Positions 3,825 to 63,863 of a stretch of DNA of 64,000 bases are shown piece by piece. Location: NCBI GenBank assembly GCA_965197475.1, contig CBDANF010000003.1, forward strand, positions 1,888,001-1,952,000. The letters are read 5' to 3'. The DNA comes from Candidatus Poribacteria bacterium. Lineage in GTDB: Bacteria; Poribacteria; WGA-4E; WGA-3G. The stretch's first letter is position 1, and each line of letters opens with the position of its first letter. The position numbers were made by a program, and so were the translations under genes. Below the pieces are notes generated by a model. It did not search any database. It was given only the letters and a program-made list of their open reading frames with translations, and was not told where the DNA came from.

Positions 3825-6800
3825 TTACCTATCATCTGGTTTGATTTTTGCTAAGATTTCCTTCCAATCCCACAAAATTAACGTGCCATCCTCAGAGCTG
3901 CTTGCCAACGTCATGCCATCATGAGAAAAAACTAAGGATGTAACATTAGTTGTATGTCCCAATGGTAAAGATAACAGTTCACTTCCCATTTCAGTATCCC
4001 ATAGTAAAAGTTTATCATCTCTGTCCACGGTAAGTAGGATGTGTCCTGCGGGTGAGAAAAGCAGGAGATCGTCATCACCTTTTGCCTTGAATTCATTGAT
4101 TGGAAGAATTTCTTTGGGTGGTGTGATTTCCCATATAACAATCACGTCACCTTTGGTTGCGAGCATAGTACTGTCACGAGAAAACGCTAACACTTCACCA
4201 CCTTCGGGTAATGTCGCAAGTTTTTCACGTTTTTCTATATTCCATACATGTGTAGGACGAAAATGTTTGCCGTTTATTGCAAGCATTGTACCATCAGGAG
4301 AGAATACCAATTTTGTGTCAGTTCCTGAATGTATCTGAACGTCTAATTTGAATAGTTCCTTTCCAGTTCTCACATCATATAAACGTACATCTTGCCATTG
4401 ATCTACACAAGCAAGGGTTTCGGTTGTTGGTGAAAATGCCATATTGATATTTAAGTTACTTTCCTCAAGTGTGAGAGAAGGAAGTGATTCTCCGCTTTCT
4501 AAGTCCAACAAAGTAATAGTGTTTCCAACTCGGGAGAACCTTAAAGCCCTCGGATTTGTTCTGTTGAAAACAATTTTTCCATCTGCGTTTTGAGCAGCAA
4601 AAAGTGTCGCTTGCGTAGATAAAGCAGTTGCCTTAGTAAGGTTAAGATTGTCAGGTATTCTCACAGATACTTCCTGTCCAGTTTTCACATTCCAATTCTG
4701 AACTGTGCCGTTCAACATAACACTGGACAATGTTGTGTCATCTTTAGAAAAAGCAATTGATTTGACCCATTTCGTGTGTTCCGTTGCAAGGGTAGAAATA
4801 CTTTTACCTGTGTTAGCATCCCATAGTTTAATTGTACCATCATCACTTGCACTGACAAGTGTCTGCCTGTCTGGAGAAAAAGCAAGCACAGAGACGTTAC
4901 TACGATGTCCATGGAAAGATACTTGTTTACTACCAGCACTGACATCCCATAATTTAATATTTCCGTATACGTCACCACTTGCAACAGTCCTATCTTCCAT
5001 AGAAAACGCCAAAGCGGATACCCATCCTGTGTGCCCAATCAATGTTCTCAGTTTTTTGCGAGATGCCACATCCCACAATTTGACCAGATTGTCTACTCCC
5101 GATGTAGCAAGCATCTTGCCATCCGTAGAAAATGCTAATGCTTGTATCCCTTGATACTTATGTCTATTATTTTTTTTGAACAAGTTGGAAAGAAACTCAT
5201 TTAGATAAAACTTTGAATGTCCTCCAAGAACATCTAACCTCTTTCCAGTGTCTGAATCCCACAAGCTGATTTTTCCATTATAGTGTCCGAGAGCAAGTGT
5301 GCTTGTGTCACTATGAATTGCTGCTGTTGTTGACTGATCAAGATAACGGTGGTCTGTAAGTTCATCACCGGTTTTGACATCCCAATGTGCGATGGAAATT
5401 GAAATGTGGCTACTAACACCCAATAGTGTTGTTCCATCTTTAGAAAATGCTAATCCCACATTTGAGGCATAGTTATATCTTGAAGCCGCAAATCTATCCT
5501 GTTCATCTGTAGAAGGTCGAAGGGAAGAGATCTCCATTCCTGTTTTTGGATTCCAAAAATGAATAATATTATTGTCATACCCACTGCTTGCGAGGATATT
5601 TCCATCTGGTGAAAACGCCAATGCGTTGACCTGCTTCGGATAAACCATCCTCATGATGTTTTCATTACCAGTGCCTATATCATATACCCACACTCCGATA
5701 CTTGTTCCCACAGTAAGCTGCGAACCGTCAGGTGAAAATCGCAAGGTGTTGATGCCACCCCTTCCAAGTCGTCTTATTGCTTCGGGAAATAGAGCAGCAC
5801 GCGCGTTGTCACCAGTTTCTACGGGTGGAATACCAATATCAATAACCAACCATGATCTTCCCTTCATCAACCTGCGAATTGATGCAAAATCATCTATTGG
5901 ATTATTCTTGATATCAAGTTTTTCTAAGTTCTGGAAGTTCTCAACTATACTAATGTCACTGATATTGTTATTATCAAGTTTTAAAGACATAAGAATTATT
6001 AATTCAGCAAGCGGTGCTATTTCTTGGATTTGATTTCCACTCAGACTTAAGTGCCTAAGGTCTTTTATTCCTGCAAGTGGAGAAATATCGGTAATCCTGT
6101 TATTCGTTAACACAAAGTTGTACGGATGGCGCATATTTGACAGGGGTGTTATATCTGTGATTTTGTTATTACCGATTGTCAATATGTTCATCCTTGTCAT
6201 ACCTTCAAGTGCTGAAATGTCTTCAATCTGATTATGATCAATCCATAATGACCGTAGCTTTTTCATACCAGATAGTGGAGTAATATCAGAAATCTGGTTA
6301 TACATTAGGTCTAACGATGTAAGTTGTGTTAGTCCTGAGAGCGGGGTAATATCACTGATGTTAGTAGTGCCAAGATACAATCTTGTCAGCTGTGTCATTT
6401 CGTTGAACGGGGAAATGTCGCTAACTTTATTTCTTGCTATGGATAATTCCCTAAGTTCCGGCACTTGTGTAAGCGGAGAGATGTCTGATATATCATTATT
6501 ATACAGGTGCAAATTTGTAAGTTGTGGCAGCTCACCTAAAGCAGAAATGTCACTGATTTGATTGTCACCCATTGATATATACGTCAATTTTTTCAAACCT
6601 GCAAGTGGGGTTATGTCACTGATTTGATTAATATTTAACACTATACTGGATAACTCGACCGCATTCTCCAAACCTAATAAGTCCTTAATATCCTTTTGCG
6701 GGGCAGTTAATTCTGTCAATTCTGCAAGTTTCAACTTTGGAATTCTTGAATTGGGTCGCAATTCCAAAGCCTCACGTATCGCTGCTGCTAAATTCTCATC

Positions 6801-57953: not shown

Positions 57954-58755
57954 ATGAAGTATTTTATAACAATGGGTATTATGGTGCTTGTTGCTGTCTG
58001 TTTGCTGATCGTTCCAACCCATGCCGCTATAAATCCCGACAATATCATGGGAATGTGGCTCTTTAATGAGGAGAACGGCGACACGGCAAAAGATTCGTCA
58101 AACAACAAGAATGATGGTAAAATCAACGGTGGTGCCAAGTGGGTTGATGGTAAGTTTGGGAAGGCACTTGAATTTGATGGAACAGACGATTGGGTTGAAG
58201 TTCCGCATTCAGACAGTCTTGGGTTTTCAAAAGGGACTTCTTTTTCTATCACGCTCCACTATAAAGGCACAAAAATAGGTGGTTCTCTCGTAGGCAAAAA
58301 CTATGAAGACACAACGCAGGCAAAACCTTGGTATCTTCTTTGGAACGGAGGAGTGGGTAATACAATATCCATCTATCTGCGTACTAATAATGACCAGAAT
58401 TCAAGAATTGATGGAACGTTGAATGTATCAGATGATAATTGGCATTTTATTGCTGCAATAGCAGATACGGATACAGAGAAGATTTCATTGTAGATTGATG
58501 GAGAAAAGAATGTTGAGGGTAACATGAATACCACCGATGGTTACGGAACTAGTGAAGGTGTGTTTCATATTTGGACATCATTCTGACAGGTATACCGCTG
58601 GCATCATTGACGATGTCACACTCTTCAATATCGCCTTAAGTGAAGACGAGATGGAAACTATCATGAACAATGGTGTTGAAGAAGTTGCGGTTGTTGACGC
58701 TATTGGCAAACTTACAACGACATGGGCTACAATTAAACATCGTGTATCTCAATAG
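57954..58755 (+). pseudogene. Disrupted secreted LamG protein
   Basis: TAG at 58491-58493 within ISL*IDG plus a frameshift near 58570; the domain resumes GHHSDRYTAGIIDDV...KLTTTWATIK. Confidence 0.8.
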
Positions 58756-58858
58756 AATTCATAAATAAATGTGGATACTGACACGAACATAAGTTTGTTC
58801 GTGCCAGTATTCTCAATAATATTATGAAGCAAACCACAAGTTAAAGGAACATATAATC

Positions 58859-59953
58859 ATGAAACAGATATTGACACTCCTTGCATTGGCGTTTTTGCTA
58901 TTTGCTGGATTAAGTTGTCAGGAAACCACAGAAGACCCAGATCCAATAGTTGACACATTAACGGGCAGCCTCCAAGGGGAGGTGCAATCAATTGAAGGCG
59001 TATCAATTCAGGTGCGCTTGTTAAAAGACGGACAACTCGTCGCGCAAACCGAAGCAGATGGAAGTTATGAGTTTGTTGAGTTTGAAGAAGGTGATTACAC
59101 GATTCAAATATCAGCAAAAGGCTATGAAATGACAGAAATGAACGTGACTGTCGTGGCGGGGGAAACTGTTTCATTGGACAAAGTGACACTGGAGGCGTTG
59201 GCGGAACCAGTATCACACCTGCGCGGCATTTTAACAGATATGAAAACAGGAAATCCACTGTCCGATGTGCTTGTGCGACTTACCGATAAAGCGGGTGAAG
59301 CGAACGAAGCGTTAACGACTAAAGAAGGTGTTTTCACCTTTGAGAATCTTCCAGTAGATCAAGCATTTACCTTGACGATCATGCATGCAGGTTATGAAGA
59401 TCACGAAGTTGCCGTGCAACCGATTCCCGCTGGTGAGACCTTTGAACAAAATATAGAACTCACCACAGGACCTGAACCGGTGGAACTGGATCCTGGTGAA
59501 GGGCTAAGCACCGGCAGCCAGGCACCAGCTTTTGAGTTGCCTGACGGTAAAGATAAGAAACATGCACTTGCAGATTATATTGGTAGCAAAAAGGTAGTAA
59601 TCGTGTTTTACCGGGGCAGGTTCTGACCGTATTGCCGCGAGCAACTCGGTGAGTTGCAAAAAAAATACGATAAAATTCAAGCTGAAGGCGCAGAACTTAT
59701 CGCTATCAGTTCTGATAGCGTAAAAGAAACGAAAAAGACGACTGATGATGGAAATCTCAAGTATCTGGTACTAGCTGATAATGACATAGAAACGATTAAC
59801 GCTTACAATGTTGTTGATCCAGCGAACAAGAGAATAGCACGAGCATCAAGTTTTGTCATAGATCTGGATGGGAAAATCACGTGGGTATCACTTGACGAAT
59901 GGGATCAGCGCGTACCAACTGCCGAAATTATATCAGAATTAGGTAAGTTCTAA
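58859..59953 (+). CDS. Selenoprotein lipoprotein: two carboxypeptidase-regulatory-like beta-sandwiches plus an AhpC/TSA domain (UPYC)
   Basis: Lipobox LSC; APAFELPD...VFYRGRF-TGA(59624)-PYCREQLGELQ in frame with the downstream ORF. Confidence 0.9.
59641..59657 (+). promoter_or_regulatory. Candidate SECIS hairpin
   Basis: GCAACTC-GGT-GAGTTGC, with the loop G 22 nt after the UGA. Confidence 0.8.
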
Positions 59954-60142
59954 TGAATTTTACGATACGGCAACAACAAACACCCGTGCCGACAACGGTA
60001 GAAATAGCGTGGTAAGCAAGTACGTTTACGATGCTAATTCCTGAGTCGGCTCGGACTATTGAAGAGAGTAATACGCTTAGGGGTTGAGGGACGCGTATAA
60101 CCTGAAACACTACAAAACAGATTTTAAATAGGAGTTTTAACT

Positions 60143-61258
60143 ATGGAACGCGTATTGACACCCCTTGGATTAGGACTTTTACTTTTGGTTGCATTGGGTT
60201 GTGGGACGGCGGATAATCCCGTCAGTAAGATTACAGAAATTGAGACTACAACAGGCGCACTACGAGGAAAGGTACAACCAATTGATGGCGTATCATTTCA
60301 GTTCCGCTTATTAAAAGACGGACAACTTGTGGCGCAAACAGAAGGAGATGACGACTTCGTACTAAGAAAGATTGAAGCAGGGGATTACACACTCCGTATC
60401 TCAGCTCAAGGCTACCAAAAAACGGAACTCAACGTGACTGTTATAGTGGGGGAAACTGTTTCATTAGATGAAGTGGTACTTGTGGAATTAGCAGAGCCTG
60501 TCTCGCAACTACATGGGCTTTTAAGGAACGCGAGAACAGGAATACGGCTTCGTAAGGTACTTATCACACTTAGCGATGAGGCGGGAAAAGAATATGAGAC
60601 GTTGACGACAAATGAAGGTGTTTTCACTTTTGAGAATTTGCCCACTTTACAGACATTTATCTTAACAGTCAAGTACGCCGATTACAAACAATACGAACTC
60701 ACGGTGGAACCCATACCTGCCAACGAGACGGTTAAATTGTATATCAAACTTACACCATTGGTGAAAGCAAGGGAATTGGAACCCCTGGAGCCCGGCGAAG
60801 GCTTAAGGATCCATAGCGATGCACCAGAATTTGAATTACCTGATGGCAACGGTGTGTTGCACACACTCGCGGACTATCTTGAAGATGGCAAAAAAGTGGT
60901 ACTTGTCTTTTATTGGGGCAGTGGGTGAGCTGCTTGTCTAACGCAACTCGGTGAGTTGCAAAAGAATTATGACAAAATTCAAGAGGCAGACGCTGAAGTA
61001 ATCGCTATTAGTGTTGATACTATAGCGGAAACAAAACAGACAGTTGAAAATGAAGGTCTTGAGTTCCCGGTACTCTCTGATCAGGAAATGGAAGCAATTT
61101 CCGCTTACAATGTAGTAAATCAAGAAAACCGCAACGTTGCACGACCAGCTACTTTTATTATTGAGTCAGATAGAACAATTGCATGGGTATCTCTTGATAC
61201 TGTGAATGAGCGGGTACCAATAGCAAAAATTCTTATGGAATTAGGTAAACTTTGGTGA
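60143..61258 (+). CDS. Selenoprotein lipoprotein paralog 2 (UAAC)
   Basis: Lipobox LGC; VFYWGSG-TGA(60926)-AACLTQLGELQ in frame. Confidence 0.9.
60943..60959 (+). promoter_or_regulatory. Candidate SECIS hairpin
   Basis: GCAACTC-GGT-GAGTTGC, same spacing from the UGA. Confidence 0.8.
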
Positions 61259-61269
61259 AATCTTTTAAA

Positions 61270-61654
61270 ACGTGAGTTCGACAAATGCCGTAGGTTGGGT
61301 AGAACAACGTGAAACCCAAAAGGTTGAATTGTTGGGTTTCGCTGTGCTCTACCCATAGGTGTCAATTTAGTGTGCTATATGCAAAAAAGATGCTGATTTG
61401 TGATGAAAGCAGCCCCAGCGGGGCAGCATGCGCGCATGGCATGCTGCATGAGGTGTCTGACAACACGTACACATACACACCTTTCGCCCCGCTGGGGCTT
61501 GAGTTTGGTAGGGGTCGCGTGTCTGGACACCTTTCGCCCCGCTGGGGCTTAGATATCTGAAATATAGGTTTATTTCCTTAAATTGACACCTATGGGTTTC
61601 GCTGTGCTCTACCCAACGGACATCTACATTTGGAACTTATTATTGAACTCACGT
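61270..61654. mobile_element. Nested miniature element with the same architecture as 10262-10742
   Basis: Outer IR ACGTGAGTTC/GAACTCACGT flanked by TTTTAAA; inner 61356-61592 with 14-bp IR TAGGTGTCAATTTA flanked by a 23-bp direct repeat. Confidence 0.75.
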
Positions 61655-61693
61655 TTTTAAAAACTAATACATACATAAAGGGGTTGTTAATAC

Positions 61694-62260
61694 ATGAAAC
61701 AGACGCAGATATTCTTTGCGTTGGCACTTTTTCTGTTGGGTGCTTTGAGTTGTGGAACAACAGATAATCTTATCAATCAACCGGAAAAGTTGGAGCCGGG
61801 TGAAGGATTGAATATTGGTAGTCAAGCACCAGATTTTGAGTTGCCAGATGGAAACGGTGCGTTACATGCTCTTGCGGATTATATTGGAAACGACAAAAAG
61901 GTGGTAATCGTCTTTTACCGAGGCGGTTGGTGAGGGTCGTGTCTAACGCAACTCGGCGAGTTGCAACAGAACTACGGAAAGATTCAAGCTGCAAACGCAA
62001 AACTTATTGCTATCAGTTCCGATGATGTAAACGCGACACAAACGACGGTTGAAAATAAAGGACTCATATATCCTGTGCTTGCAGATAGCAACAAAGACGT
62101 GATTAACGCCTACAACGTCCTTGATCAAAGCGACACAACTATAGCAAGACCTGCATCTTATATTATTTCGCCGGATGGAACGGTTGCCTGGAAATCGATT
62201 GATACTGCGGCTGTACGGGTGCCAACAGCTACAATCCTCACAGAATTAGGTAAACTCTAA
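61694..62260 (+). CDS. Selenoprotein lipoprotein paralog 3, AhpC/TSA domain only (UGSC)
   Basis: Lipobox LSC; VFYRGGW-TGA(61931)-GSCLTQLGELQ in frame. Confidence 0.9.
61948..61964 (+). promoter_or_regulatory. Candidate SECIS hairpin
   Basis: GCAACTC-GGC-GAGTTGC, same spacing from the UGA. Confidence 0.8.
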
Positions 62261-63375
62261 TGAAGTCTTACGATAAGGTAATAGAAAACATTATTGCAGA
62301 CAGTGAAGCGGCAGCACTTAAGCAAGGGACGCTCAACCGCCGCCAATTCCTAAGTCGTATTGGTACTATTGGCGGTGTTGCGCTTAGCGCAGTTCCTGCA
62401 TTCGCGCAAATTGGTGGTGGACGGGTGCTAACCCCTACGACACAAATCGCGGCACTTACACCGGTTGTTGAAGTGATCGGGAAACAAGTTTGGGAAAACG
62501 ATAGACTCAACGAAGATGCTGTTAGCGAGATGGTTGACCGAGCGATGATGAAACTCACTGGTCGAGATACTGCTAAAGAAGCGTGGCGAGACTTTGTACT
62601 GCCGGACCATATTGTCGGCATAAAAATTAACCCGCTTGCCGGTCCAAAGTTAAGCACACACTCCGTGGTCGTCAATAAAATTATTGAGGGTTTATTCAGT
62701 GCGGGCGTTCTCAGAAAACAGATAATTATTTGGGATCGATTTGAGGAACATCTGCTTAATGCCGGCTATCCGATTAAGACAGATGAAGGGGATGTGCGGA
62801 CGCTCGCGTCTGATATGGACGACATCGGCTACGATGATGAAGTGTTCTATGAAACTGAAAAAGATAGTGTTACCAGACGAGAGAATGAAAGCACCCGTTC
62901 TCGATATTCGCGAATTGTCACAGAACAGGTAGATGTGGTTATTAATGTGCCTATCTTGAAACAGCATGATATGGCGGGTGTGAGCGGGTGTTTAAAAAAC
63001 ATGGCTTTCGGCAGTGTGGATAACACGCGGCGATTCCACGGTAAACCGCTTTACTGCAATCCTGCTATTGCCGAAATTTTTGAGCATAAGGTACTGAAAA
63101 AGAAGATCGTTCTAAATATTGTTGATGGATTGGTAGCGTCATTTGATCAAGGACCGACATATCATGCTGAAAGCACGTGGCAATATGGTGGGTTGTTTGT
63201 GAGTGCTGACCCCGTCATTCTTGATACGCTTATCCTTCAAACTGTTAATCAAAAACGCGAAGAATTGGGATTAAGTTCTATGTCAAAATATGCTAACCAC
63301 ATCACCTCAGCAAGCGGTCTCGATTTGGGCAAAAACTCACTTGACCAGGTCAATCTTCAGAAAATTGAGGTATAG
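62260..63375 (+). CDS. Tat-exported DUF362-like protein
   Basis: NRRQFL Tat motif; VGIKIN, INVPILKQH...G...LKN, IVDG, DPV..D. Confidence 0.85.
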   Translation: MKSYDKVIENIIADSEAAALKQGTLNRRQFLSRIGTIGGVALSAVPAFAQIGGGRVLTPTTQIAALTPVVEVIGKQVWENDRLNEDAVSEMVDRAMMKLTGRDTAKEAWRDFVLPDHIVGIKINPLAGPKLSTHSVVVNKIIEGLFSAGVLRKQIIIWDRFEEHLLNAGYPIKTDEGDVRTLASDMDDIGYDDEVFYETEKDSVTRRENESTRSRYSRIVTEQVDVVINVPILKQHDMAGVSGCLKNMAFGSVDNTRRFHGKPLYCNPAIAEIFEHKVLKKKIVLNIVDGLVASFDQGPTYHAESTWQYGGLFVSADPVILDTLILQTVNQKREELGLSSMSKYANHITSASGLDLGKNSLDQVNLQKIEV

Positions 63376-63379
63376 TTTC

Positions 63380-63622
63380 ATGAAACGTAAATACATCTCT
63401 ATGCTTATTCTGTTGAGCGTGCTTCTAATCACAGTTGTATTCTCAGGATGCACCGTGACATTTACTCCTAACGACGCGCTGCAGTTTAACCTCTCGGAAC
63501 CGACGGATAAAGCGGTATCCCTTGTTGCGGAATTTGAATCGGGTGAAGAGGATAACGTTGCTGGTGATGTCACACAGAAGACGGGCAGTGTGTGTGCTGG
63601 CGGGGCATGCATCATCTATTGA
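63380..63622 (+). CDS. Small lipoprotein with a C-terminal CAGGAC motif
   Basis: MKRK, hydrophobic core, FSGC lipobox; starts 4 nt after the upstream stop. Confidence 0.7.
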   Translation: MKRKYISMLILLSVLLITVVFSGCTVTFTPNDALQFNLSEPTDKAVSLVAEFESGEEDNVAGDVTQKTGSVCAGGACIIY

Positions 63623-63630
63623 ATAAGGGT

Positions 63631-63863
63631 TCATTTTCCTTTATTCTTGATCTCTGCTTTTCTCTTAGCAGCGATTTTCTCCCAATCCCATAATAAAACT
63701 GTACCATCATCGCTGCCACTTGCAAGCGTTTTACCATTTCCAAGACGTGCAATTGCCCCTTCAGGTAAACCGACTTGTGTGTTGTCTTGGGCAAAGCTGG
63801 TTGAGAACATCGCTGCTATCAATAGGAACAGGAACGTGATGAAAAAAGTCTATTGGTTCTCAT
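63631..63863 (-). pseudogene. Internally deleted WD40 protein gene
   Basis: Signal peptide frameshifted in a T6 run; LPEGAIARLG joined directly to GKTLASGSDDGTVLLWD. Confidence 0.75.

Follow-up and report, generated by a model that had tools for sequence, protein, structure and literature searches.

A window of 64,000 nucleotides (nt) from a Candidatus Poribacteria bacterium (assembly GCA_965197475.1, contig CBDANF010000003.1, positions 1,888,001 to 1,952,000 of the forward strand; referred to here as the window, with positions counted from its first letter) carries three tandem redoxin genes that almost certainly are genuine selenoprotein genes. Each has an in-frame TGA at the first position of the CxxC motif of a thioredoxin fold, and the last of the three overlaps the gene for a DUF362 protein with a twin-arginine motif, which in turn is followed by a gene for a small lipoprotein with a cysteine-bearing C-terminal tail. 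Taken as a whole, the locus is best explained as encoding a periplasmic, selenocysteine (Sec)-dependent thiol or peroxide reductase that serves the DUF362-lipoprotein pair, an explanation that is considered probable, with confidence moderately above even.

Selenocysteine codons in three tandem redoxin genes

Translation table 11 divides the region into six open reading frames (ORFs). An earlier interpretation, made from the DNA letters alone (the sequence-only reading), had collapsed these into three genes, and the same lengths and coordinates were reproduced when TGA was read as Sec (U): three genes on the + strand encoding proteins of 364, 371 and 188 amino acids (aa). Redoxin gene 1, the copy most distal from the DUF362 gene (58859..59953, +; 364 aa), encodes a lipobox Cys20, two CarboxypepD_reg domains and an AhpC/TSA domain with the motif U256-P-Y-C; redoxin gene 2, the middle copy (60143..61258, +; 371 aa), likewise encodes a lipobox Cys20, two CarboxypepD_reg domains and an AhpC/TSA domain, with U262-A-A-C; and redoxin gene 3, the proximal copy (61694..62260, +; 188 aa), combines a lipobox Cys20 with an AhpC/TSA domain containing U80-G-S-C and has no beta-sandwich domain. 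According to Pfam, the CarboxypepD_reg beta-sandwich pair precedes the redox domain in both of the long redoxins. Each gene contains a single internal TGA, at 59624-59626, 60926-60928 and 61931-61933, respectively, and in gene 2 the real stop is likewise a TGA (61256-61258). The Pfam AhpC-TSA match (PF00578) runs across the internal TGA in all three genes (E-values of 8e-32, 1.2e-31 and 8.7e-33; 110.2, 109.7 and 113.3 bits against a gathering threshold of 26), and each TGA was confirmed to fall at the first position of UxxC (UPYC, UAAC, UGSC) within a continuous domain. The leaders of the three proteins are hydrophobic and end in ...AGLSC, ...VALGC and ...GALSC; the N-terminal lipobox that had been proposed for each is present as a pattern, these calls being made from the general form of the motif.

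The source assembly (5.7 Mb in 3 contigs, 92.7% complete) encodes the means of decoding such codons. A search for selA, selB, selC and selD, as the sequence-only reading had suggested, recovered all four over their curated cut-offs: the tRNA-Sec gene scored 75.1 bits (cut-off 47) and was typed by ARAGORN as SeC with the anticodon TCA, selB scored 349.8 bits (cut-off 242), selA 610.8 bits and selD 370 bits, the last with one in-frame TGA of its own (C3:3099237-3100163). The tRNA-Sec gene and selB share a strand and are approximately 230 nt apart (G000 C3:3883435-3885651, where G000 denotes the source genome).

Conservation of the TGA column was assessed with a comparison set of 48 sources, consisting of the window and 47 related loci of Candidatus Poribacteria, which are sponge symbionts, fetched via the DUF362 protein. 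A phmmer search of these sources gave 83 domain matches, 78 of them of this redoxin type; the other five were four Cys-type TlpA-like paralogues (WCKPC) and one spurious match. The first UxxC position is encoded by TGA in 78 of 78 homologues and by a Cys codon in none, and because the same column is TGA throughout, a chance origin of these codons is excluded. In a six-frame search, homologues were found in all 41 related genomes, mostly with exactly one TGA, and among the matches listed every one with E < 1.9e-13 had an in-frame TGA. More distant full-length homologues of 29-36% identity have Cys at this column (FYRGGWCPYC), so that the alignment proposed in the sequence-only reading returned Cys (CPYC) in distant proteins and TGA in the Poribacteria. 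A lipobox expression matched 56 of the 78 redoxin gene models; for the remaining 22, the choice of start codon is uncertain.

The same codons are seen in RNA libraries. Near-identical contigs from four runs of one sponge metatranscriptome study lie over parts of genes 1-3 and the DUF362 gene, and two of them bridge a Sec codon with 0 differences, that of gene 1 (59524-59774) and that of gene 3 (61733-61978). Such contigs show presence, as opposed to strand, transcript ends or translation. Among the parts that they do not cover are the TGA of gene 2 and the gene for the small lipoprotein, a gap that does not speak for absence.

Were the TGAs ordinary stops, the six ORFs would be separate genes, decayed pseudogenes or the result of assembly errors. 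Public gene calls do hold the two halves separately, as N-terminal pieces (~165-307 aa) and C-terminal pieces (107-108 aa) labelled by NCBI as 'redoxin domain-containing protein'. This explanation is nevertheless given a negligible probability in view of the TGA found at one and the same column in all 78 genes (48 genomes), the AhpC/TSA domain that continues across it, the full Sec machinery, the constraint on an RNA hairpin described below, and the occurrence of the same TGA in the RNA-library contigs. A genome-wide reassignment of TGA to Trp, Gly or Cys, by which full-length proteins would be made without selenium, is only slightly less improbable. Some full-length, 50%-identical database homologues do have Trp at the Sec column (P0006-P0013), but they come from contigs of just 0.8-1.6 kb, and because the closest in-genome relative (58% identity) has TGA at that position, the Trp is regarded as a gene-caller artefact, most likely of reading TGA as Trp under translation table 4; the variant was rejected on this ground. 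Furthermore, 34 gene models out of 78, that of gene 2 among them, end in TGA as an ordinary stop, most six-frame matches have one TGA only, and tRNA-Sec (TCA), selA, selB and selD are all present, each of which argues against reassignment.

A conserved hairpin downstream of each UGA

A hairpin resembling a selenocysteine insertion sequence (SECIS) follows the UGA of each gene. From minimum free energy structures and codon statistics, it was located at 59641..59657 (+) in gene 1 and 60943..60959 (+) in gene 2, both with the sequence GCAACUC-GGU-GAGUUGC, and at 61948..61964 (+) in gene 3, where it reads GCAACUC-GGC-GAGUUGC. The stem of 6-7 pairs begins 14-15 nt past the UGA and the loop 21 nt past it; the core, CAACUC-NNN-GAGUUG, lies within the coding sequence for Q-L-G/V-E-L-Q, a segment (QLGELQ) that is absent from the Cys homologues. 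In 77 unique sequences the stem codons are frozen, with Leu+7 encoded by CTC, Glu+9 by GAG and Leu+10 by TTG in 77 of 77 and the stem Gln by CAA in 75 and CAG in 2. The loop codon is variable (GGT 33, GGA 15, GTT 11, GGC 8, GTG 8, AGT 2), and control codons are free (Glu+23: GAA 65, GAG 5; Leu+24: CTC 28, CTT 27, CTG 9, CTA 7). A more distant family within the order shows a compensatory change of a stem C-G pair to U-A (CAAUUC...GAAUUG, genome G034), and a U.G intermediate occurs in genome G028. In the source genome, the selD gene contains a hairpin of similar shape, AGCUC-CGGGU-GAGCU, which begins 14 nt past its own UGA. Bacterial SECIS elements place the loop 16-37 nt from the UGA, with a G among the first two loop bases; the geometry found here, with the loops GGU, GGC, GGA, GUG, GUU and AGU, is consistent with this rule.

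Copy number and active-site diversity

Within the available sequence, one redoxin copy is found in 23 of the 48 sources, two in 20 and three in 5. In a maximum-likelihood tree, the 78 redox domains fell into two clades, each with support of 100/99. The first holds 22 single copies and all 25 distal copies, nearly all with UPFC or UPYC; the second holds 25 DUF362-proximal copies, 5 middle copies and one contig-edge gene. Gene 1 of the window falls among the distal and single-copy UPFC-type genes, and gene 2 groups with the 5-member clade of middle copies (100/98). The motifs of the proximal copies are UGSC, UGLC, UALC, UTLC, UPLC, UGFC and USSC, and those of the middle copies UAAC, UPAC, UPIC and ULAC, and hence the diversified active sites that had been claimed for the three genes recur across the tree as a dipeptide that varies by copy. 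As the tree is rooted at the midpoint only, the direction of change is inferred from the single-copy genomes: the three copies would have arisen by duplication of one ancestral gene of the UPFC type, with the newer copies, beside the DUF362 gene, diversifying the xx dipeptide.

Redoxin matches elsewhere in the source genome were also recorded. One in-frame TGA is present in 8 of its 15 matches, and 5 of these 8 lie away from the cluster (C3:1591327, C3:1881726, C3:3922427, C2:1239174 and C2:1239645; one TGA each). Two of the five (UPEC, UTVC) share the CAACUC-NNN-GAGUUG hairpin. The two genes on C2 form a tandem pair in which Sec takes the peroxiredoxin position (FYPxDFxxGU), and their hairpins differ from it. 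Judging from these genes, the redox selenoproteome of the symbiont seems to be large.

Linkage to DUF362 and small lipoprotein genes

The TAA stop of redoxin gene 3 overlaps the ATG of the DUF362 gene (TAATG). The DUF362 protein (PF04015; 62260..63375, +; 371 aa) has a twin-arginine motif and, in its predicted model, a LarA-like fold; its domain scored 73.5 bits against a cut-off of 24 and covers profile positions 1-198 of 200. The motif RRQFL at residues 27-31 is followed by ...AVPAFAQ, and its R27, R28 and F30 do not vary among the 20 orthologues aligned; no Tat (twin-arginine translocation) signal model in Pfam or NCBIfam matched this leader at E <= 0.01. The small lipoprotein (63380..63622, +; 80 aa; lipobox Cys24 in VFSGC) belongs to no Pfam or NCBIfam family. 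Its ORF starts 4 nt past the DUF362 stop, and its C-terminal tail reads GSVCAGGACIIY (CxGGxC-IIY). The coupling through TAATG to a gene with a Tat motif, and the small lipoprotein 4 nt on, agree in their coordinates with the sequence-only reading.

Alignment of 14 small lipoproteins identified G23-C24, Q35, F52, E53, E56, A61-G62-D63, T65, K67, S70, C72, G74-G75, C77 and the terminal Y80 as invariant; the lipobox pair G23-C24 is thus retained in 14 of 14, and the tail takes the form A-G-D-x-T-x-K-x-x-S-x-C72-x-G-G-x-C77-x-x-Y80-COOH. A profile of this protein, searched against 1.84 billion representative proteins, matched only 12 clusters at E <= 0.001, and the distant ones keep the lipobox together with a C-A-[GN]-G-x-C-T-[IV]-[YF] C-terminus.

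The arrangement is strongly conserved. Of 41 relatives, 40 have one copy of the DUF362 gene. In the synteny check proposed in the sequence-only reading, its linkage to a TGA-redoxin held in all 47 fetched loci and in each of the 24 genomes of the same genus, where the two genes abut. The end of the proximal redoxin gene lies <=5 nt from the DUF362 start in 44 of the 48 sources, with a 1-nt overlap in 37, and the small lipoprotein gene follows DUF362 in all 48. Twelve loci represented the other families of the order; a U-redoxin is found upstream in 4 of these and the lipoprotein in 7, the adjacency of redoxin and DUF362 persisting in two other families. Of the 3 loci in genus g3, 2 have an upstream redoxin of the Cys-type, TlpA-like kind and lack the U-redoxin.

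Two departures from the arrangement were observed. At locus L099 (G038:C1), an IS transposase gene of the DDE type (PF01609, E 5e-17) at 4336-5613 is the sole insertion between U-redoxin and DUF362; upstream at this locus are a gene for a Ycf48-like BNR lipoprotein, whose listed frame has one TGA, and a Cys-type TlpA-like redoxin. In genus g5 (L101, G034:C56), an extra ORF of ~200-245 aa with no Pfam match lies between the DUF362 and lipoprotein genes (5923-6660).

The DUF362 protein and its likeness to LarA

An AlphaFold2 model of the DUF362 protein, made from 20 orthologues, had a mean pLDDT (predicted local distance difference test) of 66.7 and a pTM (predicted template modelling score) of 0.71. 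Foldseek matched it to the LarA family only (E 1e-4 to 6e-3), and in VIA-align the ten top PDB entries were all of the LarA family (Z 11.3-13.8; root-mean-square deviation 3.6-4.2 Å over 193-222 residues), the next entry having a Z of 5.2. DUF362 and the DUF2088 domain of LarA are members of the same Pfam clan, CL0471, according to the accessible text of PMC11770544. As modelled, the DUF362 protein has a LarA-like fold. Searches by sequence added little: the DUF362 ortholog profile had 0 matches to PDB sequences at E <= 10, the single sequence had one irrelevant match (E 0.12), and the ESM Atlas returned only DUF362 clusters.

Residues H164, K246, H260, C244 and C266 are invariant in 20 of 20 DUF362 orthologues, and H236 is nearly so. 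With hhalign, H164, H236, K246 and H260 were aligned on H106, H172, K182 and H198 of the LarA homologue encoded by the same genome (a statistically weak match; E 0.04, probability 1.3%), and the spacing of these four residues of the LarA homologue (66, 10 and 16) equals that of His108/His174/Lys184/His200 in LarA1, where these residues are described as catalytic histidines, a cofactor-tethering lysine and a nickel ligand (PMC11770544, accessible text). The model has a pLDDT < 50 at 234-243 and 260-265, and the geometry of the active site is for this reason uncheckable; the Arg75 equivalent is unaligned. A search for Lar_N (PF09861) in the DUF362 protein gave no match at E <= 0.01, with only PF04015 reported, and the protein is accordingly filed as LarA-like in fold, and not as LarA. 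The genome also encodes LarC (475.9 bits). This was weighed as an argument that DUF362 has a nickel-pincer cofactor and then dropped, since the four Lar_N proteins (true LarA homologues) of the genome already explain its presence and would in any case need the cofactor synthesis genes larB, larC and larE.

LarA, a racemase of lactate and 2-hydroxyacids with a nickel-pincer nucleotide cofactor and a DUF2088 domain, is the closest known relative of the DUF362 protein by fold and Pfam clan, with four residues in weak alignment; the DUF362 protein differs from it in having a twin-arginine leader and two invariant Cys residues and in lacking a Lar_N match. Such a leader would suit a protein that is loaded with its cofactor before export. 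By extension, the module might be a periplasmic system dependent on a nickel-pincer (or related) cofactor, in which the LarA-like DUF362 protein would be loaded in the cytoplasm, exported folded by Tat, and work with or on the CxGGxC-IIY tail of the 56-residue mature lipoprotein, with the Sec redoxins as dedicated reductant or oxidation guard; this proposal is speculative and is considered unlikely. If true, a single extracytoplasmic pathway of sponge symbionts would need both selenium and possibly nickel, and the DUF362 family would gain its first mechanistic handle.

Proposed role of the module

SelB and tRNA-Sec, recruited by the hairpin ~15 nt downstream, are proposed to decode each UGA as Sec. 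The redoxins would then be exported by the Sec secretion pathway, lipidated and tethered to the membrane, with the two Ig-like CarboxypepD_reg domains of the long copies acting as stalks that hold the redox domain away from it. At the UxxC centre, which occupies the CxxC position of the thioredoxin fold, the selenolate may attack a disulfide, sulfenate or peroxide, and a selenenylsulfide would subsequently form with the resolving Cys. The genome has one DsbD_TM gene, and re-reduction probably proceeds via this single DsbD-type membrane reductant. The redoxins would make up one module with the DUF362 enzyme, which is translationally coupled to them, is presumably exported by Tat and probably receives a cofactor prior to export, and with the small lipoprotein as its partner; they may keep C244/C266 of DUF362, C72/C77 of the lipoprotein, or an oxidation-sensitive cofactor reduced in an oxic periplasm. 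Of the sequence-only reading, which had seen here an extracytoplasmic Sec-dependent redox system, the Sec genes proved real, whereas Sec insertion and export are still presumed.

A number of observations weigh against this interpretation or parts of it. Folded as single sequences, the three hairpin regions reach only modest z-scores (-2.07, -0.51 and -1.13), so the evidence for the hairpin is comparative, not energetic. The stem is invariant within the genus and changes in only two more distant sequences, its support coming mainly from frozen synonymous sites and not from covariation. An Rfam scan of 58700-63700 detected no SECIS family, giving only two sub-threshold miRNA-family matches, both on the intergenic repeat between genes 2 and 3. 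With a 3-nt loop and 6-7 pairs, the hairpin is smaller than the Escherichia coli fdhF element. Gaps of 189 nt and 435 nt precede genes 2 and 3, the second holding a repeat element, and the RNA-library contigs, besides being short, could derive in part from DNA; a single five-gene transcript can therefore only be presumed. The link of the redoxins to DUF362 is one of gene order only. The data cannot tell a peroxidase from a disulfide reductase; Sec lies at what is presumed to be the Thr position of the peroxiredoxin (Prx) motif PxxxTxxC, with the second Cys at that of the peroxidatic Cys. Finally, all curated NCBIfam redoxin, peroxiredoxin, ResA/TlpA and selenoprotein-redoxin models scored below their cut-offs, both among peroxiredoxins (BCP NF006960, 53.8 vs 140; AhpC TIGR03137, 46.4 vs 272; PrxQ NF053650, 42.8 vs 260; PrxU NF040737, 41.4 vs 270) and among selenoprotein redoxins (SelL_rel_redox NF040769, 42.3 vs 120; WAxxUGC_long NF041054, 28.9 vs 300; redoxin_TUGYCR NF053656, 22 vs 100), and none of the five cluster proteins reached the cut-off of any NCBIfam model.

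Whether the redoxins serve the DUF362-lipoprotein pair in particular has to be set against the possibility that they are genuine exported Sec redoxins with a general function, namely as periplasmic antioxidant or thiol-repair enzymes acting on peroxide or sulfenate, and that their adjacency to DUF362 reflects a shared expression context. In five of the 12 distant loci, no redoxin and no lipoprotein gene occurs within 5 kb of DUF362, which is thus not strictly dependent on them. The TGA-redoxin paralogues away from the cluster imply a family that is broadly used, intergenic gaps and a distance of 1-2.3 kb separate the distal copies from DUF362, and Prx-like UxxC selenoproteins are abundant in marine metagenomes, with no known partner in the accessible account (PMC2398784). 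A general function does not readily account for the retention of the stop-start overlap, or of a spacing within 5 nt, between the proximal redoxin and DUF362 in most sources, for the adjacency throughout the genus and in two other families of the order, or for the Cys-type TlpA-like redoxin that lies upstream in those g3 loci where the U-redoxin is missing. It is consequently viewed as possible but rather doubtful, and a functional tie between the redoxins and the DUF362-lipoprotein pair is somewhat favoured. A predicted complex of DUF362 (64-371) with the mature small lipoprotein scored 0.02 against a mark of 0.32, which is informative neither way.

Relation to known systems

The redoxins are members of an already described kind of selenoprotein, the Prx-like UxxC proteins. 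These were described from Sargasso Sea and Global Ocean Sampling (GOS) metagenomes (PMC2398784, PMC13188914); in GOS, Prx-like 1 (pfam00578, UxxC) comprised 225 selenoproteins and 2,740 Cys homologues (PMC2398784, Table 2), and a 'Prx-like thiol:disulfide oxidoreductase' is included in a table of the 2026 review of prokaryotic selenoproteomes (PMC13188914). The Poribacteria proteins share with Prx-like 1 the PF00578 domain, Sec as the first residue of UxxC and Cys in homologues, membership here being by description and not by sequence. They differ in having a lipobox, in two cases CarboxypepD_reg domains, one to three tandem copies with copy-specific xx residues, and a fixed position beside the Tat-DUF362 and small lipoprotein genes. 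The terms lipoprotein and signal peptide have 0 mentions in the accessible text of PMC2398784, and lipoprotein, Tat and exported have 0 in that of PMC13188914.

Three further comparisons can be made. ResA, TlpA and CcmG usually serve one periplasmic client and are re-reduced by CcdA or DsbD. The redoxins resemble them in being predicted membrane-anchored proteins of the thioredoxin fold with a W-x-x-x-C-type active site, in a genome with a DsbD_TM gene, and ResA was their best or second-best NCBIfam model (52.5-60.2 bits vs a cut-off of 170); they differ in having Sec in place of the nucleophilic Cys and in that the presumed client is the DUF362-lipoprotein pair, and not cytochrome c or Sco/CoxB. 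The Cys-type FYRGGWCPYC peroxiredoxin-like proteins, which are taken to be the CDD family PRX_like2, have the same domain and FYRGGW-C/U-xx-C at 29-36% identity; they contain a ~25-residue insertion that is missing from the Poribacteria proteins and have no QL(G/V)ELQ segment. Several selenoprotein genes in one neighbourhood are also a feature of the SAO operon, with six, and the Tso operon, with three; by the description in the accessible text of the review (PMC13188914, section 9), the genes there are of different families, whereas those here are paralogues of one family.

Since the redoxins are of a known kind, only the gene combination and the architecture appear undescribed. Three features appear to be new: an architecture of lipoproteins with stalks, the diversification of tandem copies, and a constant association with a Tat-motif, LarA-like DUF362 protein and a narrow-range, Cys-tailed lipoprotein. 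The sequence-only reading had not recognised the combination as described, and this stood to the extent that no description was found in the literature searched, SAO and Tso being compared through a review account that does not fully exclude overlap; its redoxins, in contrast, proved to be known Prx-like UxxC selenoproteins. The accessible literature found on selenoproteins of Poribacteria concerned [NiFeSe] hydrogenases and the co-occurrence of SelA and SelB in sponge symbiont bins, and no account of the module was found there; that found on selenoproteins of sponge symbionts was unrelated. The literature found on DUF362, judged mostly by titles and abstracts, did not address its function, and none was found that joined nickel-pincer with twin-arginine.

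Surrounding DNA

The 435-nt spacer between genes 2 and 3 contains a nested repeat element (61263-61661). Its 22-nt inverted ends (61263-61284 and 61640-61661) are 86% complementary, and it includes a 23-nt direct repeat in two identical copies (61333, 61593) and a 24-nt repeat, also in two identical copies (61477, 61527). With <=2 mismatches allowed, the genome contains 22 occurrences of the 23-mer, as opposed to 0 of the reversed control, and many loose-ended RNA-library contigs pile up on the element, which looks like a dispersed miniature inverted-repeat transposable element (MITE)- or repetitive extragenic palindrome (REP)-like sequence. A scan for promoters and terminators yielded counts equal to those of shuffled sequences (10 vs 10.0 and 5 vs 4.5), and was uninformative on operon structure.

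Directly upstream of the cluster on the + strand, a Laminin_G_3/concanavalin-like gene appears to be divided between two ORFs in different frames (57954-58493 and 58537-58755), with a sub-threshold Laminin_G_3 match (24.3 bits vs 27.6); the split could be due to a frameshift or an assembly indel. Related loci have tandem copies of similar upstream genes with the conserved motif DD(V/I)ALFNVAL...M. A fragment of a WD40-repeat gene (63631-63822 and beyond, - strand; 23.9 bits, sub-threshold) converges on the end of the cluster.

Significance

SelA and SelB have been reported from most symbiont bins of Aplysina aerophoba and as missing from most related reference genomes (PMC5649159, accessible text); with the present locus, the SelA and SelB of sponge symbionts gain a concrete functional context. 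Public annotation systematically truncates an expanded selenoprotein family, predicted to be exported, across a whole symbiont phylum, and the redox biology and selenium demand of the Poribacteria are therefore under-described. The series of UxxC motifs that occurs naturally on one scaffold (UPFC, UGSC, UGLC, UALC, UTLC, UAAC and others) bears on how the dipeptide tunes a selenolate centre. DUF362, a large family of unknown function, is tied to conserved partners, a Sec redoxin and a Cys-tailed lipoprotein, and to the LarA fold, with the positions of the catalytic His, Lys and His apparently kept, which makes its function testable.

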